From a virus: DNA of 64,000 nucleotides. Under the pieces are notes generated by a model. The model was not told the DNA's origin and made no database searches. It was given only the letters and a program-made list of their open reading frames with translations. The position numbers and the translations under genes are program-made. This document shows, piece by piece, positions 499 to 60,071 of this stretch (position 1 is its first letter; every line of letters begins with the position of its first letter). The stretch spans positions 64,001-128,000 of the IMG/VR virus record IMGVR_UViG_3300042887_005324, one strand, 5' to 3'.

Positions 499-2490
499 CT
501 ATAATCCGAATCTATCTTTAGTGGCATTGAAATTCTGTAATACTTCTGTAGAATTCAATACTTTATTATACATTCTAGATAGAGCGATGTTACCAGTTAA
601 GTAATCATCCCATAAACCTAATACAAAATTTGATGTTTGGTTTTGACCAGTTCTAGTTAGACTAGCTGTGTTATTCTCAACACCATTTATATAAATTCTA
701 GCAGTTGCTGAGGTATTATTAGAATCACCTTCATAAACACAAGTCACATGATACCAAGTATCTGAGGATAATGAATTAGTTGTTGTAAACGATGACCCTG
801 AGTCAATTTCCCATCTAATATTATTACCTTGAGCTTGGACATTTATATAATTACTGTTCATTGGATCATTAAAAGCAAACAATCCTTCATAAGCAGAACC
901 ACTAAATTTAGCAACACACTCAACTGTAAATCCATTACTGAAATTAATAGTATATGTAGAAACAGAATCAGCAGTGTGACTTCCATCAAAAATAATATAT
1001 CCACCATCATTAGGACTATATGATAAACTATTCATTGTTAAATTTCTTGAATTTCCAGAAATATCAAACCAAGTTGTGCCAGTGCCAGGATATGATTGAG
1101 GTAATCCAGCATCAACATAAAATTGTAAACTTTCTGTTACATAAGGAGGTGCAAAAGAAGGTAAACTACTTGTCCAACCAATATTAGAAGCAGTTACACT
1201 ATGTAATAAACCACTCACATCCACACTTGGTGTTGTTTGTTGGGAGTGTATTAAAAATTTAGTATTAGAATATGTTGCACTTAACTGAACTTCTGGAACA
1301 CTAAAAGTTCCAGTATATAAACCAGTTCCATTTATAAATCTAACATTACTAATAATACCATTAAAATAGTAATCACTATATGATGTATAATATCTACCAA
1401 CAACTAAACTGCTAATAGTATAATCTGTAGTATCAGCAACTTTATTAACTAAATTACCATTAATAAAGTAACTTGAAGTACCACCAGTTCTTGATATAGC
1501 AACATGATACCATTCATCATTACTAGCAGTATATGTTGATAGTCCGGTTCCTGCTGAAGAAAATTCAATTAAAGGTTCTGATGTATTTGCCGATTGAAGG
1601 TTTATAGATATATTATTGTTACCAACTTGTCTTTGGGAAACAATCCCGGTATAAGGATTACTTGCTGTTGATGCCTTAAAGAAAGCTTCTACTGTAAAAT
1701 CATTCGTGCCTAAAACATAATCATTTGATGTGCTTATTAAATAAGAATCAGTATCATTAAATGTCATACTACCAAAAACATATCCATGTACAACTTTATT
1801 AGAATTAAAATTAGACAATATTCTACTCACACTAAATGCTTTGTCACTAACTCTAACTTTAGAAATTTTACCATCAAAATAAGTATTATAAAAATGACCA
1901 ATTTTTAAAGTTGATGTATCAGAAACACTATGTGTTCCAGGAGTATCTGTTTCCTTTAACTCACCATTAAGATATAGTTTTCTATTAGTTCCATCAAAAG
2001 TAGCAACACCGTAATACCAGTTACCAACTATCATTGAAGATGTTCCTGACAAACTAAATGTAATATCATTATTCCACCAATAATTAGTAAGTCCATTAGC
2101 AGATAGTCTAAGAACATTTGACATATTATCATTACTAATTGTTCCCCATCCAATAATAGCACCTTGTTCTAGAACATCATATGAATTTGAGTTAAACCAA
2201 GCCTCAATTGTGTATTGTGAATTTCCAGCTGGAATACCCTCTGATTGTGTGAATGAAATATAAGAACTTGAACCATCAAAAGATAATGATGTACTAGGTA
2301 TTGAACCAGTAACAGATGAAACATTATTCAATATACCATTATTTTTTCTTATACTTAAATCCGACCAAGTTACTCCTGTGCCTGGATAACTCAATATATT
2401 ATTGGAGTCAAGTGATAAAACCAAACTTGGTGTCGCACTTCCTTGAAATAATCCTTTAGGTCCTAAAAATGTTGAAGCTCTTGATATCAT
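499..2490 (-). CDS. virion-associated protein with three LamG/concanavalin A-like domains
   Basis: Repeated LamG signatures (YTIEAWF..WYYGVATFDG..LYLNG; FTVEAFF..WYHVAISR..FING; WYHVTCVY..IYING) and LDSNNILSYPGTG-type motifs. Confidence 0.8.
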   Translation of the reverse strand: MISRASTFLGPKGLFQGSATPSLVLSLDSNNILSYPGTGVTWSDLSIRKNNGILNNVSSVTGSIPSTSLSFDGSSSYISFTQSEGIPAGNSQYTIEAWFNSNSYDVLEQGAIIGWGTISNDNMSNVLRLSANGLTNYWWNNDITFSLSGTSSMIVGNWYYGVATFDGTNRKLYLNGELKETDTPGTHSVSDTSTLKIGHFYNTYFDGKISKVRVSDKAFSVSRILSNFNSNKVVHGYVFGSMTFNDTDSYLISTSNDYVLGTNDFTVEAFFKASTASNPYTGIVSQRQVGNNNISINLQSANTSEPLIEFSSAGTGLSTYTASNDEWYHVAISRTGGTSSYFINGNLVNKVADTTDYTISSLVVGRYYTSYSDYYFNGIISNVRFINGTGLYTGTFSVPEVQLSATYSNTKFLIHSQQTTPSVDVSGLLHSVTASNIGWTSSLPSFAPPYVTESLQFYVDAGLPQSYPGTGTTWFDISGNSRNLTMNSLSYSPNDGGYIIFDGSHTADSVSTYTINFSNGFTVECVAKFSGSAYEGLFAFNDPMNSNYINVQAQGNNIRWEIDSGSSFTTTNSLSSDTWYHVTCVYEGDSNNTSATARIYINGVENNTASLTRTGQNQTSNFVLGLWDDYLTGNIALSRMYNKVLNSTEVLQNFNATKDRFGL

Positions 2491-2506
2491 TATCTATTTT
2501 ATTTAT

Positions 2507-5500
2507 TTATGATGCGAATGTTCCCATTTGTCCTAATACTTGAGCAACTGTTCCAGAACTATTAATAATAAACATAAGTCCAATTATATCTACTTGATCT
2601 GCATTACCAGTTGGTGCTTCACCATTCGCCCATTTAATTGTATGAGATGTAGTATTGATTGTAAGACCCGTAATCATATATGCACTACCACCTTGATTTA
2701 GTATAAGTGTGTAAGTAACAGTTGTATTAGGGATCAAAGGTACACTTGTGAAGTCAACATCAAAGTCTGTTGTTAAAGAACCAATATATTTTACTGCACC
2801 ATCTGTGAAACTAATTGATACTGGAGTTGAAGTGATTGTACTTGTTGTATCAGAAACTTCGACTGTTTGTCTAAAGTTAGTTGTGCCGTTCATAAATATA
2901 GTATTATTAAAATTACAGACTGACAAACCAGTACCACCTATTATTACAGAGTTACTTGTACAACAAAGTGTGTTACAACATCCACCTATAATAGCTGAGT
3001 TGTAAACATTACCACTTTCGCTACCTATCATGTTACAATATCCACCAAGTATTGATGAGTTTTTAAGGTTTCCGACGTAAGTATACATACTATTACATCT
3101 ACCACCAATAACTGATGAATAACAATCTCCATAAGTACAATTCTGTTTTCCCGATAGTATTGATGAGTAACAAGAACCATAGGTTCCATTACTAGATCCT
3201 CCTAGAATTACAGAATAATCAGAATCTTGTAATTTGTTACAACAACCTGATAGTATACCTGAGTAACAAGACGAATTTACTCGAGCACAAGCTCCAGTAA
3301 TAACAGCTGAATAACGACTATTACTACACACACAGTTATAACAACCAGCAATAACAGCTGAATAACAACTACTATTACAAATTGAGTTATAACAACCTCC
3401 AAGAATAGCTGAATGCTGTGAGTTATTTCTGATAACATTAGAACATCCACCAATTATACTTGATTGATCTGAACTACAAATGCAGTTATCGACTCCACCA
3501 ACTATTGACGATTCATAGGAGTAGTTACAGACTCGATTGCTTCTTCCACCAGTTACTGAGGATTGTATTGAATAATTTGAAACTGTGTTTCTACAACCAG
3601 CTCCGATAAAGGATCTTATAGAGGCGATATTTATGCAGTTATAGTAACCACCAGCAATGACTGAATTACAAGTTGGGTCTGGAGAACCTTCAGTTCCAAT
3701 AGAGTTACAGAAACCACTAACCACAGCAGACAGTCTTGAATCACCCTGTATGGCATTTTGACAACCACCCACAATAGATGACATTCTAGCATCTTGTTGT
3801 ACCGTGTTTTGACAACCGCCTAAAATTGTCGAAGAATGAGCGTACCCACAAATTCTGTTACTGCGACCACCTAGTATACCTGAATAATAGTTACAATCAC
3901 CACCTAAATTAAAAATACAGTTGTTTTGTCCGGCGATAATAGCTCCTGCATAACCTCTACACATATCATTGTTATCACCACCACTAATTATTGATTTGCT
4001 TGATCTACAAAGTGTGTTATTTCTACCACCCGTTACGGATGAATGGTCACTGTTATCATCTATTACATTTTGTTGACCGCCAAGTATTGTTGAATTACCT
4101 GATCCGTTATAGATGCCATTCGAGTAACCACCAAGTATTGTTGAATAAGATGAGTTACTACAAATGTCGTTACATCTTCCACCAATAATTGATGAGAACC
4201 CAGAGTTGTCACATATTTTATTTATATTCCCACTTATTACTGAACTACCAACAGAACCATCTACTCTATTAAGAGTACCTCCAATAATACTTGCTCCAGC
4301 CGAAGCGGTAACACCATTATAAGAACCACCAATTACAGAACCATTACTTGAGTTATAAATATAGTTACTTGTACCAGTCATTGACTCAGTTGCACCGTTG
4401 ATTATACCCCCAAAATTTGGTTGTAAACTAACTAATGTTCTATAGTTAATGTTACCAAGGCCATCTTTTGTAAGAATCTTATCATCTGAAGGTGAGTTAG
4501 AAACTGAACAAACTCTCAACTTAGGTACAGCGACCATACTATTCACGCCATCTAATGTCATATTGACTCCACCAATTATAGCTGAGTTATATGAGTTATT
4601 TATAGTGTTATTTCTACCACCAATAATAGATGAACGATAACTATAATTTTGAATATTATTTGAACATCCACTCAAGATACCTGATTCGAAAACACACGAG
4701 TTGATAATATTTTGATAACCACCTACAATTGCATCATTCGAAGCTGCTGTACAAATTGTATTACAGTAACCACCAGAAATCACTGAATAGTCAGATCCAC
4801 TACATATTATATTACAATATCCGCCAGAAATTAATGAATAATCAGAACTACAAATTGTATTACATTTACCAGCCACAACACCACTACTGATTGAAGAGTC
4901 ATGAATACAGTTAAAATGACCACCAGCTATGATTGATCTATCACTTTGTCCACAAATTTGGTTTTCGTGTCCACCAAGTATAGCAGTTCTTTGTGATGAA
5001 TTAAGAATAGTATGATTTGATCCACCAACTATTACAGAGTTGTATGATTGACACAACTGTGAATTGCAATTCGATATTATCGAACTTCTACATGCTCCAT
5101 CAATTTTATTATTCTCACCACCAATTATATTCGAATTATTCGAACTAGTTGCGATAATATTAGCGCATCCTGCTAAAATTGCAGAACGATAAGTATTATT
5201 TAGAATTGAATTACATACTCCGGATATAATACTAGAATCAGTAATTTGATTAGATATTATATTACAATATCCATTGTCAATCGAAACACGATATGAATTA
5301 TTAATAATACCGTACCTACCACCCATAACAATTGATATACCAGAGTTACAAATTTTTGATCCTTCACCACCAATTATTGAAGAGTAATCACTATTAGAAC
5401 AAATGATGTTGTAACATCCACCTAAAATTGAAGATCCTTCTGATCCTCCACAAATATTATTAATATATCCTCCAATAATAGCTGACTGATGTGAGTTATT

Positions 5501-7393
5501 ACAAATGAAGTTATTCTCACCTCCTATAATTGTTGCATTATCTGAAGTAGTAATATTACTATTTTGACCACCTACAATTGCTGCATTAGATGAAGTAGCA
5601 ATAGTATTATTTTCACCGGATATTTCGCCACTACCAATAGTAGAAGCTTGTCTAAAAGTTATATTACCATTTGCATCAGCTACCAAGACTTTTGTATTAT
5701 TATTACACTCATCTAAGTTATTAATCTTCAAATAAGGAACCAATACAGTATTACTTTGTGTAGCTAATGTTAAGTTTGAACCACCCAATATAACTGAGTT
5801 TTCAGAGTTAACAATACTATTTGTAAGACCTCCTATAATTGAGTTACCCCCAAGTTTAACGGTATAAATATCACCAAATTCATCACTAGCAGTAAGACCG
5901 CTTGTTATAATTAAATTTGATTCACCACCAATAATTGATGATTTAGTTGAATAACAATCTATTCTATTACAACACCCACCTAAAATACCAGAATTATTAG
6001 AGTAGCAATTTAAAGTATTATAACCACCTCCTAAAATAACACCATAGCCATTATCATTATTACCACCAATACATATTGTATTACAACAACCACCAATTAT
6101 AGCAGAGTATTGTGTTTCACAAATCAAACCACGAGAACCCCCAACTATAACAGAATAATCAGATTCTCCATAAATTTTGTTAACTTGACCACCAATAATT
6201 ACCGAGTGATCTGAAGAACAAATTATGTTATCACATCCAGCTATAATCGAGTTAACTCCAGAACCATAATCTCCAATAACTTTATTACAAGCTCCACCAA
6301 TAATTGATGAGTTACAAGAATTGGATACTATTTGATTATAATATCCACCAATAATAGATGAGTTATTTGAACCAGTCCCACCATAATAACCACCACCAGC
6401 GGTAGAACCAAAAATTTGGTTACAAACTCCACCAATAATTGATGAGTTACAAGATGCTAAATATATAACACTTCTATAACCACCTATTATAGATGAATAA
6501 GAACTTTGACAAACAATTGTGTTACAACATCCACCCAAGATAGATGAATTGCAACTTTGACAAACAATTTTGTTACGAGAACCACCCAAGATAGATGACT
6601 CCCTTGATTCATCACAAATACTATTGCAACATCCACCAATAACTGATGAATTACAAGAACCAAAACAGTAACCATTAGATTCGGTAATTCCATATTTGCC
6701 ACAAATACTATTACAACATCCACCCATTATAGATGATTCACAAGAGTATCCACAAATTACATTATATTGCCCACCAACTATTGAAGAGTTTTTTGAATTA
6801 TCACACACACAGTTATAATAACCACCTATTACAGAAGAACAACTTGATGAATCGTTCATACGGTTACCATAACCCCCAACTATAGATGAATCATTTGTAC
6901 CAGTACAAATTTCATTACATCTACCACCTATTACAGAAGAACCGCAACTATCTTCCATGCAGTTACGACATCCACCCAATATAGATGACCGACAACTATA
7001 GTCATTAATACAGTTTTCATATCCACCTATGATTGAAGATGAGTTAGATTCATAACAGATTTTATTAAGAGTACCTCCAATAATTGATGAATTAAATAAA
7101 CCCTCACCACCACCATCTAAGGAGTTTGTAAGACCACCTAAAATAACACCATTATCAGTGTTGTTTTTGGTGTGACCATTTCCTACAATAAGATTTTTGT
7201 CGGCGTCAAATGTGAAATTTTGTGATCCAGTTGCTGGATTACCAAGACCACCTCCAATTGAAACAAAATCTTCATTTAAAGTACCACCACCCGAAAGTGA
7301 AATTTCTTCAAGATATTGAAAGTTTCCATCCATTTCAGCGATGGTTAGTCTTCTACCGATTTGACCTCTTAATACTAACGAGTAAGTTGACAT
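2507..7393 (-). CDS. Cys-rich beta-roll repeat fibre protein (S-S-I-I-G-G-x-x-N repeats)
   Basis: 1628 aa, mostly ~15-16 residue SSIIGGCCNxI repeats; C-terminal domain shared with 12458..14143. Confidence 0.75.
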   Translation of the reverse strand: MSTYSLVLRGQIGRRLTIAEMDGNFQYLEEISLSGGGTLNEDFVSIGGGLGNPATGSQNFTFDADKNLIVGNGHTKNNTDNGVILGGLTNSLDGGGEGLFNSSIIGGTLNKICYESNSSSIIGGYENCINDYSCRSSILGGCRNCMEDSCGSSVIGGRCNEICTGTNDSSIVGGYGNRMNDSSSCSSVIGGYYNCVCDNSKNSSIVGGQYNVICGYSCESSIMGGCCNSICGKYGITESNGYCFGSCNSSVIGGCCNSICDESRESSILGGSRNKIVCQSCNSSILGGCCNTIVCQSSYSSIIGGYRSVIYLASCNSSIIGGVCNQIFGSTAGGGYYGGTGSNNSSIIGGYYNQIVSNSCNSSIIGGACNKVIGDYGSGVNSIIAGCDNIICSSDHSVIIGGQVNKIYGESDYSVIVGGSRGLICETQYSAIIGGCCNTICIGGNNDNGYGVILGGGYNTLNCYSNNSGILGGCCNRIDCYSTKSSIIGGESNLIITSGLTASDEFGDIYTVKLGGNSIIGGLTNSIVNSENSVILGGSNLTLATQSNTVLVPYLKINNLDECNNNTKVLVADANGNITFRQASTIGSGEISGENNTIATSSNAAIVGGQNSNITTSDNATIIGGENNFICNNSHQSAIIGGYINNICGGSEGSSILGGCYNIICSNSDYSSIIGGEGSKICNSGISIVMGGRYGIINNSYRVSIDNGYCNIISNQITDSSIISGVCNSILNNTYRSAILAGCANIIATSSNNSNIIGGENNKIDGACRSSIISNCNSQLCQSYNSVIVGGSNHTILNSSQRTAILGGHENQICGQSDRSIIAGGHFNCIHDSSISSGVVAGKCNTICSSDYSLISGGYCNIICSGSDYSVISGGYCNTICTAASNDAIVGGYQNIINSCVFESGILSGCSNNIQNYSYRSSIIGGRNNTINNSYNSAIIGGVNMTLDGVNSMVAVPKLRVCSVSNSPSDDKILTKDGLGNINYRTLVSLQPNFGGIINGATESMTGTSNYIYNSSNGSVIGGSYNGVTASAGASIIGGTLNRVDGSVGSSVISGNINKICDNSGFSSIIGGRCNDICSNSSYSTILGGYSNGIYNGSGNSTILGGQQNVIDDNSDHSSVTGGRNNTLCRSSKSIISGGDNNDMCRGYAGAIIAGQNNCIFNLGGDCNYYSGILGGRSNRICGYAHSSTILGGCQNTVQQDARMSSIVGGCQNAIQGDSRLSAVVSGFCNSIGTEGSPDPTCNSVIAGGYYNCINIASIRSFIGAGCRNTVSNYSIQSSVTGGRSNRVCNYSYESSIVGGVDNCICSSDQSSIIGGCSNVIRNNSQHSAILGGCYNSICNSSCYSAVIAGCYNCVCSNSRYSAVITGACARVNSSCYSGILSGCCNKLQDSDYSVILGGSSNGTYGSCYSSILSGKQNCTYGDCYSSVIGGRCNSMYTYVGNLKNSSILGGYCNMIGSESGNVYNSAIIGGCCNTLCCTSNSVIIGGTGLSVCNFNNTIFMNGTTNFRQTVEVSDTTSTITSTPVSISFTDGAVKYIGSLTTDFDVDFTSVPLIPNTTVTYTLILNQGGSAYMITGLTINTTSHTIKWANGEAPTGNADQVDIIGLMFIINSSGTVAQVLGQMGTFAS

Positions 7394-12457: not shown

Positions 12458-14143
12458 TTATCCAAATGTACTTACTTGAGCCAAAACTGACCAATCATTG
12501 TTTCTTCTTATGAATGAAAACCCAACAACATCTGTTTGGTTAACACTTCCGGAAGGTGTACTAGCGCCAACCCATTTTACACTATAAGTATTTCCATTTA
12601 TTAAAATTGGCGATGTAGGTAGATAAGCTGTTCCTTGTTGTTCAATAATAATCGTAGAGGTGATAACTTTCATTTCAATCTCTGGAACATTCTGGAAGTC
12701 TGGCTGAAAGTCTTCAGCCAAATCATCGTGTGTCCAGATTGAACCTAAATTGAAGTCATAAATAATTGTTGCACCTGCGGTTGAAGTATTTAGTTCTTCT
12801 ATTGTTTGTTGAAACTGAGTTGTTGCTTGAATTGAAAAAGTTGATCCATCGAATGTTAAATTATTTTGAGCAACTAACCCAGTTGACCCATCCGAAGTGA
12901 CTAAAGAGTTGTTTGATGCATTTGTTATAGTTAAGGTAGATGAGAAATTTGATGGACTTATTTCTATGTTCCAAAAACTATAAGTAGGAACCACACCATC
13001 ATTGTTTGTTGCTCCGAATTTCGGAGAATAGTTTACCACTAGTTCAAGTAAACCAGTCTCAAAGTTATATCCAGTTACTTCACCGACGAAATAAATACCA
13101 GCATCATCAACATAGTCATCAATTGCATAGTTATTATCAATAATATTGTAAACGATTAAACTATGTGCTTGTTTAAATCCGAGTCTATCTTGAGTTTGTA
13201 ATTCTATAATAAACCCTTCTTCAGGTAGTTGAAGATGTGAACTTGAGGTGCCAGAGTACCTGTATAATACAGATTGATTGTCTCTAATAATATCTCCAAC
13301 TGTTGGTAGTATAATATTACCATTTTTGAATTGTAAGTCAAAGTTTGAAGCAGATCCAATTGTTTGTATAGAAATATAACCATTATTATTTTCATCGATA
13401 TTGGATGAGATAATAGAACTTGGAGTTATGCCAGAAATAAAATTAACTGAAGATTCGACTATACTTAAAGAAGAATTAAATTGGACTGAATTATCAGTAG
13501 AAATTGTTGCAGTATCAATAAATGTAAAAGGAATGCCTTGTAAATTATTGTAAGAAATCGGTAGACTCTGAGTACTGTTGTAAAGTAGTGTATCTCCATC
13601 AGTCGAAAGCACAAATGGATTATCAACAGAACCTATGTTAACACTATTAACTACTAAGCTATTATTATGTGATGAAAGAGTTAAACCACCAATATAAATA
13701 GAACTTGTGCCAACATACAAACTCCTCCATTGTAACTGAGGTGATCCCAAGTTATAAGTACTGTTAGTGCCTGGTAAAAAGTCACCATTAAGTGTTAATT
13801 CACCACTACCTGGACTAATTGTATTAATATCTAAGTCTGAAAGTAATCCAGTAATGTAATTCTCTACATCTTTAGCAATGACAATAGGTGTATTTTGAGT
13901 TAACGTGTCAATTTGTGTTTGTAGTTGAGTTATTGCTGACTTAGCTTCATTTGAATTATAAAAATTCAGAAATATTATCTTATCATTTTTAAGATTAATT
14001 TTTACCAAATTATTATTCACCATCGTATTGACGATAGAAAATGGGTTCACAGTGTACTTAATCACACCAGTGCTATCTAAAATTTGGATATTTCTATCTC
14101 CCGTTCCTAACGGTCTTAAAAAATAATTTACATTATAAGTCAT
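12458..14143 (-). CDS. virion fibre/structural protein
   Basis: YNLGSPQLQWRSLY fibre-type motif; C-terminal domain paralogous to that of 2507..7393. Confidence 0.6.
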   Translation of the reverse strand: MTYNVNYFLRPLGTGDRNIQILDSTGVIKYTVNPFSIVNTMVNNNLVKINLKNDKIIFLNFYNSNEAKSAITQLQTQIDTLTQNTPIVIAKDVENYITGLLSDLDINTISPGSGELTLNGDFLPGTNSTYNLGSPQLQWRSLYVGTSSIYIGGLTLSSHNNSLVVNSVNIGSVDNPFVLSTDGDTLLYNSTQSLPISYNNLQGIPFTFIDTATISTDNSVQFNSSLSIVESSVNFISGITPSSIISSNIDENNNGYISIQTIGSASNFDLQFKNGNIILPTVGDIIRDNQSVLYRYSGTSSSHLQLPEEGFIIELQTQDRLGFKQAHSLIVYNIIDNNYAIDDYVDDAGIYFVGEVTGYNFETGLLELVVNYSPKFGATNNDGVVPTYSFWNIEISPSNFSSTLTITNASNNSLVTSDGSTGLVAQNNLTFDGSTFSIQATTQFQQTIEELNTSTAGATIIYDFNLGSIWTHDDLAEDFQPDFQNVPEIEMKVITSTIIIEQQGTAYLPTSPILINGNTYSVKWVGASTPSGSVNQTDVVGFSFIRRNNDWSVLAQVSTFG

Positions 14144-19319: not shown

Positions 19320-22300
19320 TTAATTACCCCACGAACCACTTTTGAATACACCATTATACCAAATTCCAGAATCAAATTGATCACCATCGAATATTCCATT
19401 AGTCCAAATACCACTATACCAATGAGCTCCTTTGAAGTGACTGACTACTCTTAATCCAGTTTCATATCCAACATTATCAATTGATCCTATTGTGTTATCA
19501 ACACCTAGTTGACTCAAATCATAATTTAAATACAAAGTTGTTCTTTCGAGAACTGAATCTTCAAGTATTTGTATGATTCTATAGCTAAGTGGATTTTCAT
19601 TATTACCAAGATTTGCGTATGCTTGATCTGTATAATCATCAATAATCCAAATTATATCACCGGTATTAAATTTGAAAATACCATTCAATACAATCGAATT
19701 AGTTGACGATGTATTGGGATAAATTTGATTTACACCAATTACTTGTATCTCTTCTAAAATTCCACCAAGCCAATCACCACTTCTAAAGTCGACGTTATAA
19801 GCTATACCACCATAGAATTTTCCTTTAAGCCAAATTCCAGTTCTCCAAATTGAATATTTGTGTATATCAGATACAAGTGTTTCACCACTTTCACTATCAA
19901 CATTTAGAAAAGAGTGAAACTCACCATCAACCCAACGACCACCATGCCAGTTTGCTGTTCTGCTATTACTTGCTTTTGTTCCAAATCTTGTTAGGATTTG
20001 CTGGTCATTACCAAATAAACCATTATACCAGATACCGTTTTCGAAGTCACCAGACTTAAAGGTTCCGTAAAGCCAATAAGCAGGTTTTGAATTACAATTA
20101 AAAATTCCTTTTTCCCAAGTTCCTTGTACCCAGACTCCACCTTCAAAATTACCATCTTTCCAAAGTCCATCGTTCCAAATACCATTATACCAGTTACCAG
20201 TGTTCCAGTCACCAGCATATCTTCTACCATTATACCAAGTACCTCCTTCCCAAGTACCATCAAACCACCTACCGTTAAACCATCTTGAAGCAGTATTGTC
20301 TATGTAAGAGGTATCTACTTCAACAGAAATTACTTTATATTTTGTGTTATAAGATTTCCAAGTTCCTTCATACCAATCACCACTTACCCATCTACCAGAA
20401 TACCATGTCCCTCCAAACCACCTACCACACCTCCAAATACCTGAGTACCAAACTAAACCATTCTTATCTCTACCAATTACAGCATTTGAAATCTCAGCCT
20501 CTAACAGCCAAGAAAAGTTTTGATTTACTTCATCTAATGAAAGACCATCAACAAACTCAAATTTGTATTTAGTCAAGTCCAAATCAACTAAACTATAAGT
20601 TGAACCAGTAAGTTTGAAATTTTCTGGCATTATTTCAATTGACCTAGTGACATTTTTATCAACGCCTAAGTTAAATAAATCAATATTTTGATAGTTGAAA
20701 AACGGATCTTTCTTAATAAATTTAACTTGAACATTATCGACTTCACCTAAATAATCAAAAGAGTAATAGTATTTTGATGTAGATATTTTTGTCGGTCCCT
20801 CATTGGATATAACTGTCTGTAGTCCTAAAACATTACTCAAATTAAATACTGAGCTTGTTCCGGATATAAGATATATCAAGTCACCAGGTTGTAATTCATT
20901 TTCCCCTATATTCAAAATTAATCTATTGGGTTCACCTTTTATTGGCTCATCATATCCATTCCAGTATGAAGAAGAAGAGTCTACACTAGTTACGTTATAA
21001 ACTAATTCCTTTTCGAGATTCAAAATATTCATTGATAGTTGATAGTCATAATCAACATATATTATTGAACTAATATATTTTCTTATTGAATAATCAGATA
21101 CCAAAGCCTTAAAATATGAGTCAGTACTAAACTTAGTTTTTAATTCATTCTCTAGTGTTGAAAAAGTATTTAAATATTGAACTGTTTTATTTTTCTGTGT
21201 TCTTTGAATATTATTCAATAGCTGAAGATCCTGACTTATTTCTAACAGTTCATTTCTACTTCTGATATCTAATTCAAAAACAGAAAAACTACCAGGTAGT
21301 TCAAACTTTCTATGAAACTCCATGACATATCCACCTAAGTTAGAGTCATAATATTTATTCGTTATTAGTAATCGTGTGTTAATAACATCACCATCTGTTG
21401 TGGATCTAAAAGTTATATCAACAAATGTATGTAACAACAATGAATCCCAATGGTTTTTATAATCAGACCCAAATATTAGTTGATTAGTTCCATTTCTATA
21501 CCAACTATAAGTACCTGTTTGAACTCCTACACTAGGATCAACAAATATGTTGGAATCAGTAAATGTGTTACTGTCATTTCCTACTAAATTTGTAAACTCT
21601 GGTAAGATTGAAAAAATCTTATCTGATGTGAAAATATCAGGATCTACCTTATTTAGATAATCAAAGATGTTATATGTAGGACTATAACCAAAATCTAAGA
21701 AGCTCTCCTTATAACTCAAATCACTGGTGAAATTACTTGATTGACTAATTAGATTAAATCTAGCTTGTAAATTATAATAAGCAGTCTTGTTGTTAAATCT
21801 TGGAGTTATGATTAAATCGTTATCTGATATTTCAAACTTATATGCTAATCCCAAAAAGTGATTGTCCAAATTCGATATTAGTGTATCAGAAGATGTATAT
21901 CTATTTAAATAAGTCAAACTAATAACGGCTGTAGATTTAGTGAGATTTTTAATTATTGTCTCATTAAATTCCGAATAGCAATACATATAAACATCATATC
22001 TCTTAGTTGTGTTAATTGTTACTGGTGGAAACTGACCAGCTGACATTCTTAACCTTGTTGTACTATTAGATGTTGTATATTCAAAAACTTCGATTCTATT
22101 AATAAGTAAGTTACAATCTATCACATCAGATGTTAATCTAACTATATCACCAACTTGTGGTAAAGTATCAATATTGTTAGAAGTTATATCAAAAGTCTGA
22201 CTGAATACTAAGATATCTCGATATGCCCAGATTTTATATGGCTGAGATGATGAGTTATTAGTGGGTAGAAAATTAGATGCAATTGGCGTTGAATTCTGAA

Positions 22301-27079: not shown

Positions 27080-27292
27080 ATGAATTTTATTTTAGAGTTT
27101 AAAAGTTTTTATAAGCCAGGTGATTTAGTATTAATAAAATACTGGTATAACCGTATGGTAACACCAGTGAGAATTGTTGAAAAAAAAGGAAATAAGTTTT
27201 TAATTTCACACGATGTTGAATCTTCTAAAATTAGAAACGCTCCTGATGAATTAATCAAAAACTCTGAAATCATATCTCCGTATAGAAATTAA
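27080..27292 (+). CDS. small SH3/KOW-like hypothetical protein
   Basis: YKPGDLVLI pattern; AATATATA motif upstream. Confidence 0.55.
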   Translation: MNFILEFKSFYKPGDLVLIKYWYNRMVTPVRIVEKKGNKFLISHDVESSKIRNAPDELIKNSEIISPYRN

Positions 27293-28407
27293 GATAAATG
27301 AAAAATAATATCATCATAGAAGGCTTGATCTTTAGGATCATTCATATCTAAGTATTGTTCTTTAATAATCTCAAAGTCTTGAACAGTCAATTTATCATCG
27401 AACAACATCTGTTTTAAAGACTCATAATAAAACTTTGTTTCTCTTTGTGAAAAACTATCAGTAATATCGTTTTCGAGTGTATCTAAATAAATCTTTTGTG
27501 GTTTATTTTTTACAGTTTTCCACTTACTCTTAGGAGTTTCATCATACCAATCATCATAGTCACGAAAGGCTCTTGAAGAAAGCTTTCTACTTGTTCCACT
27601 TCTTGAAGAAAAACGACCAGTTGGATGATAACTATCATAAGTAGAATATTCACTTTTATAATAGTTTTTATATTCTTTATTCTTAGTATCTCTTTCAGTT
27701 GGTAGATTTTCCCAATCAATTTTAACAGAAGCATTACAAAGTTTCACTAAGTGTGCTAAATCTTGATGTTCTTCGTGTGTATGTTCTTTGTAATAACCAA
27801 CAGAGATATTTGTACATTCTGAAATAACACCAGTAAACTCAGCTGAGTCAGTATAAACACCAGTATCGTCTGGTGCCATCATCATACCATTACTATTATA
27901 CTGTTTTGCTAGTTCATTTGCAAATTTATCAGAACAACATCTTTGAGAAGATTGATAAGTAATAATAGAACCAGTACCTCTTCTATCAAAAGAAATCATT
28001 CTATTATAGTTCTTAAACAAATCATCTTTAGAAGCTGCACTTGAACCAATACATCCAACTTCTTCTCCGATGAAAAAACAATAAAGACCTGGAACATTTT
28101 TCTCTATCATATAAAGTAAGACTGTCATACCAGCTTTATCGTCAGCTCCTAAAATACTCTTACCATTTGTTCTGATATAATTTTTATCAAAAACATGAGT
28201 CACATTTACTTGAGCTTTACAAGCAGTATCTAAGTGACAAGTAAAAGCTGTTTTACTTTCGCCAATTTTATAGTAATAGTTTCCGTGTTCGTCTTTGAAA
28301 TATCCTTTTGGTAGAAAAATCTCTAATTCTTCTTCATAACCATAAGGAAAGGTTTTCATCGTAAGTGCCAGAAAAGTTTCTTTAATTTTCATTAGGTTAA
28401 TATTCAT
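27289..28407 (-). CDS. M28/M20-family Zn-dependent peptidase-like protein
   Basis: HLDT, LGADDKAG, EEVG, FDRRG, YTDS and EH metal-ligand motifs; start revised to ATG 28407 (or 28392). Confidence 0.8.
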   Translation of the reverse strand: MNINLMKIKETFLALTMKTFPYGYEEELEIFLPKGYFKDEHGNYYYKIGESKTAFTCHLDTACKAQVNVTHVFDKNYIRTNGKSILGADDKAGMTVLLYMIEKNVPGLYCFFIGEEVGCIGSSAASKDDLFKNYNRMISFDRRGTGSIITYQSSQRCCSDKFANELAKQYNSNGMMMAPDDTGVYTDSAEFTGVISECTNISVGYYKEHTHEEHQDLAHLVKLCNASVKIDWENLPTERDTKNKEYKNYYKSEYSTYDSYHPTGRFSSRSGTSRKLSSRAFRDYDDWYDETPKSKWKTVKNKPQKIYLDTLENDITDSFSQRETKFYYESLKQMLFDDKLTVQDFEIIKEQYLDMNDPKDQAFYDDIIFHLS

Positions 28408-28413
28408 TATATA

Positions 28414-28445
28414 CAAATATAAGGTAAAAATCTGAAATATCCAAA
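28414..28445 (-). promoter_or_regulatory. Bacteroidota primary-sigma type promoter (TTTG-N20-TATATTTG)
   Basis: Matches the -33 TTTG / -7 TAnnTTTG consensus. Confidence 0.7.
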
Positions 28446-28498: not shown

Positions 28499-29257
28499 TT
28501 ATTTTAATTTAAATTTTAATTTTAATTCTTTTATTAAATGTGGATGAGCCCATTTTTCATCTAAAATATCAACTTCTACGACCTGTTTGTTGGGTATTAG
28601 GTTGTGTTTCAATTGATAATGATCACCTATAGATGTTGGATCAGATGGTTTATTAACTCTAAAAATACTTCCATCTTCAAGTTGAATAAATAAGGTTCCT
28701 TTTTTATACTTAAATTTGTTGCCATTATTATATTCTATTTCAACATCTTCTTTAACTTTCCAGCCTTTTACTTCATATTTTTTGGAATCAGGGTTATTAT
28801 CACTAAATAATTTATCAAGTTTGAAACTTCTATATTCCATTTGATTCATTACATATAATGGTTTTATTCTCCACTCACAAACACTATTCTTAGACAAGTG
28901 ACATTTAAGAGCCGCCTCATTTGCTTGATGTATTGAATGATATATTTTGTGATTCCAATATGTAGTCCATCCATACCATTCACCTTTATTGTCTTTCCAT
29001 CTTACTTCTAAAGTATATCCATAAGGATTTATATCATCAGCGACAGCTTGACATTTAAAATGAATTGATTCTTCTATTGCCCAATTTTTACCATTAACTG
29101 TGTAATAGTGTTTTGGAGTTACTAATTTTTCTGTGGATGTTCCGGTGATCTCTTTGAAAGAGTTGAGATCTGTGTTTGAATGTGTTTGATAACCTGAGTT
29201 GATATCTTGTCTGGTTAAATTGACAAGTTGAGAATTTTGTGAATTAATCTACATCAT
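28499..29257 (-). CDS. 252-codon gene with in-frame amber (TAG) at codon 3; candidate read-through gene (or pseudogene)
   Basis: ATG ATG TAG ATT AAT... at 29257-29243, in frame with track ORF 28499..28897; about 117 extra open codons with no ATG/GTG/TTG; own AATATATA motif at 29276-29283. Confidence 0.7.
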
Positions 29258-29293
29258 ATTTTTTATTTTTATTTTTATATATTATAAAATTTG

Positions 29294-29374
29294 TGCTTCC
29301 AGGAGGGCACGATCCCCTTTCCTCTGAGGTTAGAATTCAGATTATCCCCACGGATAATTTAAGGATCTGAAAGC
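29294..29374 (-). tRNA. non-canonical tRNA-like RNA with CUA anticodon (putative amber suppressor)
   Basis: Acceptor GCTTTCA(G)/(C)TGGAAGC-A; anticodon arm TCTGA-A-TT[CTA]AC-C-TCAGA; T-like arm GGGG-ATCGTGC-CCTC; tandem with tRNA-CAU and shares its ..GCACAA 3' trailer. Confidence 0.6.
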
Positions 29375-29381
29375 AATTTTG

Positions 29382-29454
29382 TGCGCCCTACTGGGATCGA
29401 ACCAGTGACCCGCTGATTATGAGTCAGCCGCTCTAACCTCTGAGCTAAAAGCGC
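29382..29454 (-). tRNA. tRNA with CAU anticodon (probably Ile2, lysidine type; otherwise elongator Met)
   Basis: GCGCTTT-TAGCTCAGAGGTTAGAGC-GGCTGACT[CAT]AATCAGC-...GGTTCGATCC-..AGGGCGC-A canonical cloverleaf. Confidence 0.92.
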
Positions 29455-51834: not shown

Positions 51835-53220
51835 TCATATAAAATTATAGTAATTAAATAAATTTGTTGCTGGTGAAACCCCTGCTGGGCCGATATTTCC
51901 TTGAGGACCAGTAGGACCTTGAGGACCAGAACCTTGAGGACCAGTAGGCCCTTGAGATCCAGTTGAACCTAAACCAGATGTTCCTTGTGGTCCAGTTGGA
52001 CCTTGTGAGCCATTGGCACCAGATGAACCTTGAGGTCCAGTAGGACCCTGTGTGCCTAAACCTTGTGGTCCGGTTGGTCCTTGAATACCGGTATCTCCTT
52101 GACTACCCTGAGATCCTGTTGGTCCTTGGAATCCTTGGAGTCCTTGAGGACCAATGACACCAGAAGAAACGATTGATAAGATAATTGGGTGATTTAGTGG
52201 TACAGAATAGGTTCCGCTTACTAAATTAACTGGAAAAGTTAAATAACTATTATAGATTACAGAGGGTGTACTAGAAATTATCCATTGTTGAAAGTTTGCA
52301 GAATCGTTTGAATCTTGGATTGTTAAGTAATCATTTATTTTAAGTAAGGCCAAGAAAATATCAACATCAATATTGTCGACAGTAAGATGTGAAACATAAA
52401 TTGTGTTTGAAGCAGTCTGTGTTGAATTACTCCAAGAAATAGAACCAGTTGCAGGTGGCACAGAGGTAGCACCACCTACATAATTATAAAATGAAGTTGA
52501 TTGTCCATTTGCTCCTTGAAATCCTTGAGGTCCAGTTGGTCCTTGAAAACCTTGGTATCCCTGATCACCCTGAAAACCTTGAGGACCTTGATCACCTTGA
52601 AATCCAATATCTCCTTGTGGTCCTTGATCACCCTGAAAACCTTGAGGACCTTGATCGCCTTGAAATCCAACATCTCCTTGTGGTCCTTGATCGCCTTGAA
52701 ATCCAACATCTCCTTGTGGTCCTACTGGACCTTGATCTCCCTGAGGACCTTGATCACCTTGTAAACCTTGAGGACCAACATCACCTTGTACACCTTGAGG
52801 TCCTTGATCACCTTGTGGTCCTGGATCACCTTGTGGACCTTGAAACCCTTGATCACCCTGAAATCCCTGAGGGCCTTGATCGCCTTGTGGTCCAGTTGGT
52901 CCTTGACTTCCCGAACCTGTTCCACCACCTGCTGGTCCCTGTGGACCCTGAAATCCTTGTGGTCCGGTCGATCCCACACCAGTCGGACCTTGAAATCCCT
53001 GAGGACCGGTTGTTCCCTGAGGACCAGTTGCTCCTTGACTACCAGAGCCAGTCCCACCTCCACCACCTGAACCCTGAGGTCCAGTCGGACCCTGAAAACC
53101 CTGTGGTCCCGAAGCAGTAGAAACAGTCAAAACCCAACCATATCCATTAAAAATAAATAGATTTCCATTGAATGAATATGTTTGACCAGATGAAGGTGGA
53201 TTCGGGAAATTAATTGCCAT
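51835..53220 (-). CDS. collagen-like fibre protein
   Basis: Gly-X-Y runs (GPQ, GFQ, GDQ, GPT); MAINFP N-terminal module. Confidence 0.88.
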   Translation of the reverse strand: MAINFPNPPSSGQTYSFNGNLFIFNGYGWVLTVSTASGPQGFQGPTGPQGSGGGGGTGSGSQGATGPQGTTGPQGFQGPTGVGSTGPQGFQGPQGPAGGGTGSGSQGPTGPQGDQGPQGFQGDQGFQGPQGDPGPQGDQGPQGVQGDVGPQGLQGDQGPQGDQGPVGPQGDVGFQGDQGPQGDVGFQGDQGPQGFQGDQGPQGDIGFQGDQGPQGFQGDQGYQGFQGPTGPQGFQGANGQSTSFYNYVGGATSVPPATGSISWSNSTQTASNTIYVSHLTVDNIDVDIFLALLKINDYLTIQDSNDSANFQQWIISSTPSVIYNSYLTFPVNLVSGTYSVPLNHPIILSIVSSGVIGPQGLQGFQGPTGSQGSQGDTGIQGPTGPQGLGTQGPTGPQGSSGANGSQGPTGPQGTSGLGSTGSQGPTGPQGSGPQGPTGPQGNIGPAGVSPATNLFNYYNFI

Positions 53221-53252
53221 ATCTTATTTATTAATTAAGTGGTTTTTCATTT

Positions 53253-56200
53253 TTAAGGTATAAATTGACTATCCCCGGTGATTGTAAATATTGTATATAA
53301 ACCATCAGTTGATGTAGTATAGGTTCCAATGACAGTACTATTTTGAGAAGTCAAAACACGTAATATAACTACACCATTACTACCATTGCCACCTTGACCG
53401 GTATTAGTAGCACCACCACCACCACCCATACCATAACCACCAGCACCATTTGTACCAGCACCTCCAGTTGTATTACCACCCTTACCACCAGTATTTCCAG
53501 TACCACCGGATGATTGAACGGATCCGTTACCCCCACCACCACCACCACCAGCAGAGTAATAAGAAGATGTTCCGGTAATTGAACTTGTTTTACCAGCACC
53601 ACCATCACCACCGGCTTGTGAAGTTTGTCCCTCTGTACCAACTGCACCAGCACCACCTCCACCACCACAACCGAAAGTACTCAATCCTCTTGACTGACCA
53701 CCACTGTTGTATGAATTAATAGTTTGAAATTCTATAGTTACATTATTGACACCAGATCCACCAGCAACTGTTCCACCAGAACCTGGAAAACCTGCTCCTC
53801 CACCAGAACCATTACCGTTTGAATTCCCAACAACTGCTGTAGATCCACTTGAGTTGAATCCACCACCACCACCTCCAGAACCCGTGATAGTGAAATTACT
53901 AGAAGTATATTTTACACCTTGTATATATGATGTACCACCATTACCGCCAGCTCCTGTAGTAGTTGCTCCAGCTCCACCAGTTCCAACAATAACATCATAA
54001 ACAAATCCTTTAGCAAATCCAGAAGTTCCTTCTACGAAGGCTCCACCACCTCCGCCACCACCCCAGTTGCATCCACCTCCGCCACCGCCACCAATGACTA
54101 GATATTGAACTGAAACGTATGAGTAAATTGGTGGCTTTACAAAATTACCTTGTAAATATGGACCAAATTGTTGACCTGTTTCAGTTGTAACATTACCTCC
54201 AGAACCTTGTAGACCATACATTTCAATATAATCAGTGATACCATCCATAAAAATCATTGCACTAATCATTGTTCCAACACCATTAGTATTACAAGGAACC
54301 CTAACACCTCTTTTAAATTCATATCCATTTTTATAAAGTGACATAATTTGTGAGCCAGCATTTGAGGCGTATGTGACAACACTGATATGACCATGAAACA
54401 GATAATAGCCTGCTAAAGTTGGCGTAAATCGATAGGTTGAAGTGCTGAATGCGTTATCAGAATCAAATTCTTCAGTATCTAAAGTTATTTTAGTTACTAC
54501 ATTGTTATTTAGTGTTGTCGCAACACTTCCATAAGCTGAAAATGCAGGACCATCAAGTGCTTTGAAAGTGGCAATTTGATAAGTAGCGGCATTAAATGTA
54601 GTAGCGGATGCTAGATTGATTACTGAAATAGTACCAGCTGTGAGTGTATTGGTTATTGTTGCATTATTCGTTACTGATAATGAACCAGTTGCAGATATAT
54701 TACCTAGAATAGATTGTGTACCTGAAGATAAAGTTCCTCTTAGATTTGAGTTTCCAGTAATAGTCAATGAACCAGTTGCACTAATATTTCCTAATACAGA
54801 TTGTGTACCGGAAAATACATTACCAGTCAATATTGAGTTTCCAGACACATTCAAATTACTACTAATTGTAGTTGGTTGGAATAACAAAATTGAGTTTGTT
54901 CCAAATGTCGACATTGTGGTAGAACCAATACCACCAGTATATAATGATATATTAGTGTTTGAACCAACTGATATTCTTCCATTACCAGTGATGAAGTCTG
55001 TAACGATTCCATTTGTAAAACTACTAGAATATGTAGAAGTTGACAGTAATCCACCTATGACACTATAGTTGCCATAACCATCCAAAGTAGAAACTAAAGT
55101 TGTACCAGCATACCATTTGTGTGAAGATCCTTGAGTATCAACACCATACCATAATGTAGAAGGAGCCACACCAAACGCGTAACCAGCACTAGCAGTACCA
55201 ATTGTTTCATATAAGACTATTTTACTACCAATACTTCTTGTCGTGAAGGTAGGTGGTGCAGAACCACCAAAATTAGTCATATTAATCCAGCCACCGTTTG
55301 CATTGTTACCAGTCAATGTAACTAAAGCTCCACCACTACTAGATGTTATAGTTATTGGTGAATTTATATTGACCATATTTGTTGTAAATGTGATACTACT
55401 TGTACTTGAAATAGCTGATGTTCCAGAATAAAAAGCAATTTGATTAGTAGTTCCATTATTTACAGTGTTTATAGATGACCAAGTTGTACCATTATAAAAA
55501 CTATAAAGTGATAGATTTGTATCAAATACTAACAAACCAGCAGTAGCTGATACAATTGCATTTTTTTCAGAAGATAACATTCTTGGTGGTAAGAAACCTT
55601 TAGTTGTTGAATTTAATGTCAAAATAGAACTTGTAACTCCTAAGAATGTTCCCCCATTTTGCAACATCAAACTACCATCCACAAACATTAACATATTCGT
55701 TGTGGTGCTGTTTCTCCATTCAAAAAGTGGTCTTGTTGTGACTAAACTACTACCATTTAATCTAGATTCAAATCTAGTTATTGATGTTGTCCCAATATCA
55801 GTGCCCGTCAATAAATCCGAAAGAATCCAAGTTGATGGATAACCATTTGTATTAGATCTAGACCATATCGTTGGTGCAAAAATATTTGCTGTTTGAACTC
55901 CATTTGTAAAACGTACATATCCGTCTGTCGATGATACACCATTTCCATACATTACAATAAAACTATTACCGGTTGAAGTCACTTCCAATGAATATGTTGA
56001 ACCAGTACCGGTGATTCTTTGTCTACCAACTACATCTAAGTTAAAAGAAGGTGCAGTCATACCTATACCAACACTTCCAACAGAATCCACAACAAAAGGA
56101 CTTGAATCTGGATTACTAGAGTCTTCAACAATAAGTGCATTTCCTGAACCTGTTTGTGTTATTCTTACCAAATCTGTTGAGGTCTCACCTGAAACTCTCA

Positions 56201-59987: not shown

Positions 59988-60071
59988 TAAAATTCATTAA
60001 GATTTAACTTTATATATTAAAAATATAAGTGACCACTATAAACCAAATGAACATATTTAAATATAAAATTT

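Follow-up and report, generated by a model that had tools for sequence, protein, structure and literature searches.

A covarying family of non-canonical tRNA(CUA)-like genes linked to an early-UAG, Pth2-like gene in huge phages

The element and its neighbours in the window

The window, i.e., the entire 64,000-nt stretch of DNA under analysis, comprises bases 64001-128000 of a 174-kb IMG/VR virus record with a G+C content of 30% and an estimated completeness of 68%. Positions 29294..29374 on its minus strand hold an 81-nt non-canonical tRNA-like gene with the anticodon CUA, recognized by its sequence and fold; with 81.6 bits against the family model R3 (see below), this copy is among the best scoring of its family. 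A canonical tRNA(CAU) gene (29381..29454, minus strand), which is called by ARAGORN and matches the Rfam tRNA model with 66.5 bits, lies 7 nt upstream of the element on the same strand. CCA is un-encoded in both genes and thus would be added afterwards. Downstream of the element, an ORF starting with ATG ATG TAG occupies 28499..29257 on the minus strand and would specify 252 aa if its TAG (29249-29251) were read through; a AATATATA motif precedes this ORF at 29276-29283. The cassette is adjoined by an M28-like peptidase gene (27289-28416, minus strand), which has at least two paralogues in the same genome (G000 4757-5836 and 12536-13912); all three match one gene of the record G001, a relative described below.

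The acceptor stem of the element consists of 8 bp (GCUUUCAG/CUGGAAGC, one U.G pair included), its 5' strand (nt 1-8; 29367..29374, minus strand) pairing with 29295-29302, and the discriminator is A (29294). Nucleotides 10-12, UCC (29363..29365, minus strand), pair with GGA at 29320-29322, the first three bases of the 5-nt variable region, and thereby form a helix termed P2. A conserved linker UUAAA (29358-29362, minus strand) precedes the equivalent of the D arm (29342..29357, minus strand), in which six covarying pairs, UUAUCC/GGAUAA, are capped by the tetraloop GUGG. The anticodon arm (29323..29341, minus strand) has five standard pairs and a loop-closing A.C, written CUGA(A)/(C)UCAG, around the 7-nt loop UUCUAAC with CUA at 29331-29333. 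In the T arm (29303..29317, minus strand), a 4-bp stem GGGG/CCUC carries the loop AUCGUGC, with A54/U58 in place of U54/A58. U8 is absent. The features that a sequence-only reading had claimed for this interval, namely an acceptor stem of 7-8 bp followed by A, the hairpin AUUAUCC-GUGG-GGAUAAU, the potential of UCCU to pair with AGGA, the T loop AUCGUGC, the missing U8 and an extended anticodon stem, were all found on the minus strand. The same T loop AUCGUGC is present in the nearest relative of the window copy, L177, whose downstream gene is intact, and A54/U58 T loops seem to be a trait of this phage lineage rather than a sign of decay.

Standard tRNA finders do not recognize the element, as had been predicted from the sequence. 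ARAGORN makes no call at its default setting nor at thresholds lowered to 80%, and at 70% it misreads the gene with a wrong, four-base anticodon; the Rfam tRNA, tRNA-Sec and tmRNA models give no match at E<=10. The same holds for the family: none of 14 members is called by ARAGORN at default (0/14), and the window copy and three relatives (4/5) are unmatched by Rfam tRNA at E<=10, the fifth member reaching 25.4 bits vs a cut-off of 29. Huge-phage genomes that carry this family therefore look devoid of a suppressor tRNA. Folding of the window sequence by itself gives an MFE of -26.1 kcal/mol (z = -1.75; 9 of 200 shuffles fold equally well), which barely beats chance, and therefore the case for the element rests on its relatives.

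Relatives of the element and the fold common to them

The neighbouring peptidase-like protein led to G001 as the record with the first relative. When the window sequence with its proposed structure was the only input to a covariance model, the G001 copy scored 41.4 bits and all of its model pairs were standard; this copy is missed by the single-sequence model under default Infernal filters and found with the filters off. Between these two copies, 12/27 pairs are changed on both sides. In G001, a canonical tRNA(CUA) stands at the place corresponding to that of tRNA(CAU) in the window, followed by a spacer of ~6-7 nt and then by the 82-nt look-alike. Models R2 and R3 recovered further members beside relatives of the adjacent genes and in whole records. 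Searches of IMG/VR with exact or degenerate DNA patterns yielded only the G001 copy and chance matches in coding sequences, and a hand-written structure scanner was dropped as far too permissive.

By covariance models seeded from the window element, at least 16 distinct relatives were found in 20 huge, AT-rich phage records. The final alignment, A9, has 17 rows with 16 distinct sequences from these 20 records. Standard pairs occupy 93.1% of its cells, compared with 36-44% when the partners are slid by 1-3 columns; 24/27 pairs show changes on both sides, and none of 500 shuffles matches the observed pairing values. A9 was fitted to the model and hence is biased toward the structure of that model, but a genuine signal is indicated by the slid controls and by the use of a single sequence as the seed. 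Homologues with compensatory changes thus exist, and the anticodon is conserved, CUA and A37 being present in 16/16 sequences; both had been named as checks on the sequence-only reading. By comparison of sequences, an RNA family with this fold is well supported, and the element does not appear to be a decayed tRNA.

The eighth acceptor pair is standard in 16/16 sequences, with four pair types. In the alternative 7/5 division of the acceptor and T stems, the additional fifth T-stem pair would form in only 1-2 of the 16, and the arrangement is thus 8/4. All cells of the T stem are paired in A9 (100%). The three pairs of P2 (nt 10-12 with the first three bases of the variable region) are formed in 16/16, 16/16 and 12/12 sequences with three to four pair types per position. 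The single base between the acceptor stem and P2 is A in 13/16, and the linker after P2 is UUAAA or UUAAU. The D hairpin, which abuts the anticodon stem, has a 6-bp stem and a 4-5-nt loop in 14/16; all six pairs are changed on both sides, 91% of its cells are paired and GG is present in the loop of all relatives. L175 and L176 have other sequence in place of the D hairpin and retain P2. The variable region consists of 4-5 nt without a hairpin. The T loop is UUCGA or UUCAA in 14/16, and AUCGU in the window copy and L177.

The anticodon stem contains four to five firm pairs, its top pair being formed in 12/16, and the loop-closing pair (39.47) is standard in only 4/16 and mismatched in 12/16. 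The 7-nt loop follows the pattern Y-U-C-U-A-A-N, in which C34, U35, A36 and A37 are invariant (16/16) while the flanking stems vary. U33 is present in 14/16, being replaced by A in G001 and by C in G017. The loss of U33 in these two copies and the loop-closing mismatch in 12/16 would weaken decoding.

The canonical two-base connector with U8 is absent, and nt 10-12 pair with the variable region instead of a D stem. As the connector pairs with the variable loop, the usual four-way junction would be replaced by two nested three-way junctions (acceptor/P2/T and P2/D/anticodon); as modelled, both arm lengths would be near those of a normal tRNA. The two D-region folds that had been offered from the sequence alone fared differently in their parts. 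The hairpin, as one of 6 bp, and the UCC/GGA helix covary. A D stem UCCU/GGGA forms in 5-9 of the 16, no better than slid controls; a seventh hairpin pair is found in 7/16 and a fourth P2 pair (UCCU/AGGA) in 3/11, neither being conserved.

The downstream gene, its early UAG and its associated tRNAs

The frame of the window ORF remains open for 250 codons beyond the TAG, to 28499, and contains no in-frame ATG, GTG or TTG after the TAG until 28897 (residue 121). Its residues 32-252 are 66.5% identical to the product of a gene in the related record G005. There, the order is element, AATATATA motif, ATG AAG TAG ATT, a 117-aa Pth2-like ORF and then the homologue of window residues 32-252. Over its first ~24 aa, in which the TAG is codon 3, the window ORF matches the start of the Pth2-like protein, and this leader is conserved in G005. 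By this comparison, the body of the Pth2-like hydrolase has been deleted in frame in the window, with its ~24-residue leader fused to the next gene. No other Pth2-like match was found in the 174-kb record. Three of the gated proteins score 26.0, 24.4 and 21.2 bits against Pfam PF01981 (PTH2), the cut-off being 23.

A search with an alignment of the Pth2-like proteins yielded 33 IMG/VR loci and 6 GenBank records. A start of the form M-(0-3 aa)-TAG, which places UAG 1-4 codons after the ATG, occurs in 31/33 of the IMG/VR and 6/6 of the GenBank relatives (37/39), and the stretch immediately behind the TAG shows conservation at the protein level. The suppressor proposed in the sequence-only reading has a likely codon to decode in this conserved UAG near the start of the downstream gene. 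This TAG sits in the non-conserved N-terminal tail of the Pth2-like protein, so that any inserted residue would be tolerated. The codon after the TAG specifies Ile in 36 of the 37 TAG-bearing relatives and is ATT wherever the DNA was read; in L169, ATG TAG ATT follow one another directly. That ATT nearly always follows leaves room for a start-stop mini-ORF and subsequent re-initiation. The exception is G001, in which the TAG is followed by AAC and no potential start codon occurs before a GTG within the conserved first strand of the domain; initiation past the stop is therefore unlikely in G001.

In the cultured Tenacibaculum phage pT24 (L249, LC168164.1; 5001-5900), the annotated start of BPT24_235 lies 81 nt downstream of the onset of homology, and ATG AAA TAG ATT is found in frame upstream of it. 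The start of a UAG-dependent gene may thus be mis-set in annotation, as exemplified by BPT24_235. In G018, a second AATATATA motif with ATG ATG TAG ATT (19850-20000, minus strand, within L147) lies upstream of the real Pth2-like start. Within a few codons, this second leader meets a stop and a hairpin resembling a terminator; it has the appearance of a duplicate of the leader or of a decoy.

The element and the gene are consistently linked. In 17/17 aligned copies with a full Pth2-like gene, the element is upstream of that gene on the same strand, at a distance of ~50 nt to 3.4 kb. Ordinary 7/5 tRNA(CUA) genes substitute for the element in other phages: G018 has two of them, L171 and L153 have one apiece, and others occur in LR756500, LR756501 and pT24; in G009, the single ordinary 7/5 tRNA(CUA) is ~128 kb away. 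The annotated tRNA-Sup(CUA) of pT24, BPT24_227, is 2.6 kb upstream of ATG AAA TAG ATT on the same strand. The anticodon arm of the first canonical tRNA of G018 differs by one base from that of the family member L155, and a 31.39 mismatch is common to both, which suggests a common descent of the canonical and non-canonical forms. The replacement of one by the other at the same cassette in sister phages suggests that both forms of tRNA(CUA) do the same job.

A tRNA with anticodon CUA, of either form, is present in all five of the examined genomes that are complete or nearly so (G024, G023, G025, G009 and pT24). G024 is a complete genome of 373 kb with terminal repeats in which ARAGORN finds 33 tRNAs and no suppressor; its sole CUA-anticodon tRNA-like gene is the non-canonical one, and its Pth2-like gene is the only recognizable early-TAG gene. 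A scan of G024 for early stops gave three other TAG hits, vs nine for TAA and three for TGA, and these three look like background. TAG terminates 12/137 ORFs of at least 150 codons in the source record of the window and 37/312 long ORFs in G024. As TAG ends normal ORFs, a strong suppressor would be costly. Genome-wide recoding of TAG was rejected: standard-code ORFs tile the source record densely and cover the genomes, with TAG as an ordinary minor stop, and the TAG-split ORFs considered as a sign of recoding proved to be adjacent genes or antisense shadows. As a separate observation, the window region 52000-60000 has a G+C content of 0.40-0.42, vs ~0.29 elsewhere, and includes a 2244-aa ORF (53253-59987, minus strand); on both strands of this region, numerous long open frames overlap one another and give rise to spurious in-frame-stop signals.

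The related records reach 373-483 kb. The GenBank relatives are the uncultured huge phages LR745206 and LR756500-LR756504 (462-735 kb), in addition to pT24. The host is probably a member of Bacteroidota, as judged from pT24 alone. In a tree of Pth2 sequences, the backbone is unresolved and the deepest branches (pT24, LR756500 and LR756501) carry canonical tRNAs; a single origin of the odd fold is neither shown nor excluded by this tree.

Amber suppression, rival readings and known tRNAs

Comparison establishes the conserved structure, the invariant anticodon, the linkage to an early UAG and the replacement by an ordinary tRNA(CUA) in sister phages. The most economical reading of these features, which is inferential and which we regard as probable if far from certain, is an amber-suppressor role. 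The proposal made from the sequence alone, of a new class of suppressor tRNA, gains support from the covarying relatives, the invariant CUA and A37, and the linked early UAG. Specifically, we judge it somewhat likely that the element, with its rewired core, functions as a phage tRNA and decodes UAG for the downstream gene.

In this mechanism, the element would be co-transcribed with the upstream tRNA(CAU) and excised as in any tRNA array, with CCA added post-transcriptionally. The 8-bp acceptor stem and the 4-bp T stem would stack into an arm of the usual 12 bp. The connector that leads from the acceptor to the D stem would have grown from 2 to 9 nt, three of its bases pairing with the variable loop as P2, and the long D hairpin would retain the GG that normally touches the T loop. 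After aminoacylation, probably by a host synthetase, the invariant CUA would pair with the conserved UAG 1-4 codons past the ATG of the immediately downstream gene, which is the Pth2-like gene in the relatives and the fusion ORF in the window; full translation would occur only when the element out-competes release factor 1. Processing, aminoacylation, use by the ribosome and the purpose of gating are steps that we infer, and the fit of the fold to EF-Tu and the ribosome is assumed; to our knowledge, the 8/4-plus-P2 fold has no solved or tested precedent. Gating of a hydrolase by a stop codon might serve timing, a guard against untimely expression or feedback on suppressor activity.

The sequence of the element is not informative about the amino acid. 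G1-C72 is invariant, the discriminator is A in 14/16 and G in 2/16, and G3.U70 is not conserved, so that these identity elements would point to no amino acid. A search for PylS (TIGR02367) in G000, G001, G005 and G024, of which the last is complete, yielded no match, and G000, G005 and G024 also lack synthetases of the Glu/Gln-type, class IIa-core and class IIb families. Given this absence, any charging of the RNA is likely to depend on a host enzyme. A dedicated synthetase travelling with the element was not found among the genomes searched (G000, G001, G005 and G024); the several synthetase genes of G001 are unlinked to the element. One of the genes in G001 (172939-173865) codes for a Glu/Gln-type synthetase and is located beside three tRNA-Gln genes.

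The RNA might instead be a tRNA-shaped regulator or decoy that is unused by the ribosome and keeps its CUA loop for a reason other than decoding, for example as a ligand, substrate or sensor of the Pth2-like enzyme or as bait for host defence nucleases that target tRNAs. Its core without precedent among translating tRNAs, the non-universal U33, the mostly mismatched loop-closing pair, the tight linkage to a tRNA-hydrolase-like gene and the want of an accompanying synthetase would all accord with such a role. We consider it unlikely, as it would leave unexplained the matching UAG conserved in 37/39 of the neighbouring genes, and as the cassette of sister phages has an ordinary 7/5 tRNA(CUA) in place of the element. 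The RNA also retains the GG of the D loop, a 12-bp acceptor/T arm and, for the majority of copies, a UUCGA T loop. A different doubt concerns the codon, since the early TAG might be unread. ATG-x-TAG would then be a mini-ORF of 1-4 codons, followed by re-initiation at the ATT, and the tRNA(CUA) would serve another purpose or none. The nearly constant Ile codon (36/37) and the direct ATG TAG ATT of L169 fit this arrangement, and so do the bar minigenes of phage lambda, in which mini-ORFs and peptidyl-tRNA drop-off are linked to Pth function. Evidence against it comes from G001, where AAC follows the TAG and the next GTG is inside the conserved first strand of the domain, from the presence of a CUA tRNA of either form in all five complete or nearly complete genomes, and from the complete G024, which has one recognizable early-TAG gene and three other hits at the TAA/TGA background. 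This explanation is rated as improbable.

The remaining alternative accepts the family and concerns the window copy, which might be a relic in the course of loss, as the hydrolase that it served has been deleted from the genome. Of the Pth2-like gene, only the 24-aa leader remains, joined to the gene that follows; the 174-kb record contains no further Pth2-like match, and this copy combines a loop-closing A.C with an unusual T loop. Yet the copy scores 81.6 bits, among the best of the family, its mismatch is the majority state of the family, and the nearest relative, L177, has the same T loop together with an intact gated gene. In addition, the fused frame is open for 250 codons past the TAG and, without read-through, would offer no start before residue 121. 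Decay of the window copy is the least probable of the readings considered here.

Among known tRNAs, the allo-tRNAs, in which a 12-bp acceptor/T arm is divided 8/4 or 9/3, resemble the family in the 8/4 division, in the long D stem capped by a tetraloop, in an anticodon stem of increased length and in their occurrence in phages. 8/4 tRNAs, namely allo-tRNAs and phage (8/4) tRNA-Ser and tRNA-His, are compatible with E. coli translation, and some members of the allo-tRNA family have been proposed as nonsense suppressors (Mukai et al., Nucleic Acids Res 2017, PMC5389517). However, allo-tRNAs have a long hairpin variable arm (class II) and mostly G73 or U73, fitting Ser identity, whereas the present family has a variable region of 4-5 nt, A73 in 14/16 and a 9-nt acceptor-to-D connector. 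The pairing of three bases between connector and variable region is found in this family and is undescribed for allo-tRNAs. A resemblance to tRNA-Sec and tRNA-Pyl, which had been pointed out from the sequence, extends to isolated features and leaves out those that define either tRNA. The element resembles tRNA-Sec in the lengths of the acceptor stem (8 bp), of the D stem and its loop (6 bp and 4 nt) and of the anticodon stem (~6 bp); tRNA-Sec itself has the anticodon UCA, a long variable arm and 13 bp in its acceptor/T arm (8/5 or 9/4), in contrast to the 12-bp arm, short variable region and CUA of the element, which has no Rfam tRNA-Sec match. Similar to tRNA-Pyl are the anticodon CUA, the small size of the D loop, the longer than usual anticodon stem and the one base that follows the acceptor stem. 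tRNA-Pyl differs in its 7/5 arm, its 3-nt variable loop, the lack of GG in the D loop and its dependence on PylRS, the element having an 8/4 arm, a 5-nt variable region and GG.

Ordinary phage suppressors resemble the element in being phage-borne tRNAs with the anticodon CUA, and the same early-TAG Pth2-like gene is present with them in pT24, G018 and G009. However, these tRNAs (BPT24_227 of pT24 and those of code 15 crAss-like and Lak phages) are 7/5 cloverleaves that are found by scanners. Also, code-15 phages contain many in-frame TAGs, whereas the genomes analysed here use the standard code with one recognizable early-TAG gene each. The XacN1 genome was reported to encode two CUA suppressors and a peptidyl-tRNA hydrolase, with no target found (PMC5852040); the targets went unfound because only the 3' ends of genes were examined (PMC5852040). 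In contrast to what that search covered, the recognizable target in the phages described here is a UAG at the 5' end of one gene. No description of an 8/4-plus-P2 fold or of an amber-gated Pth2 cassette was found in the literature.

If it does translate, the family would widen the known limits of tRNA architecture by a connector-to-variable-loop helix atop an 8/4 arm, and it could be a natural starting point for orthogonal suppressor tRNAs. The odd shape might confer partial orthogonality to host synthetases, modification enzymes or anticodon nucleases. A bolder and more doubtful idea, offered tentatively, is that the connector-variable-loop helix defines a third natural working tRNA core beside classes I and II, and that this core arose in huge phages of Bacteroidota to serve a single amber-gated gene exclusively.

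Unusual tRNA genes of other kinds are also present in these phages. In pT24, two 79-nt genes annotated as 'tRNA-Undet' (within 2384-3341) are read by ARAGORN as tRNA-Ile(UAU) with an enlarged anticodon region. The 190-kb fragment G001 contains 46 tRNA genes between 129434 and 172865, some of which are odd: one call (133744-133833) has a four-base anticodon, and 86-90-nt tRNA-Met, tRNA-Asp and tRNA-Gln genes may hold introns. A canonical tRNA-Glu(UUC) of the same fragment (L045:3096-3167, corresponding to G001:143096-143167) has the T loop AUCGUAA, with the A54/U58 swap that is also present in the window element.
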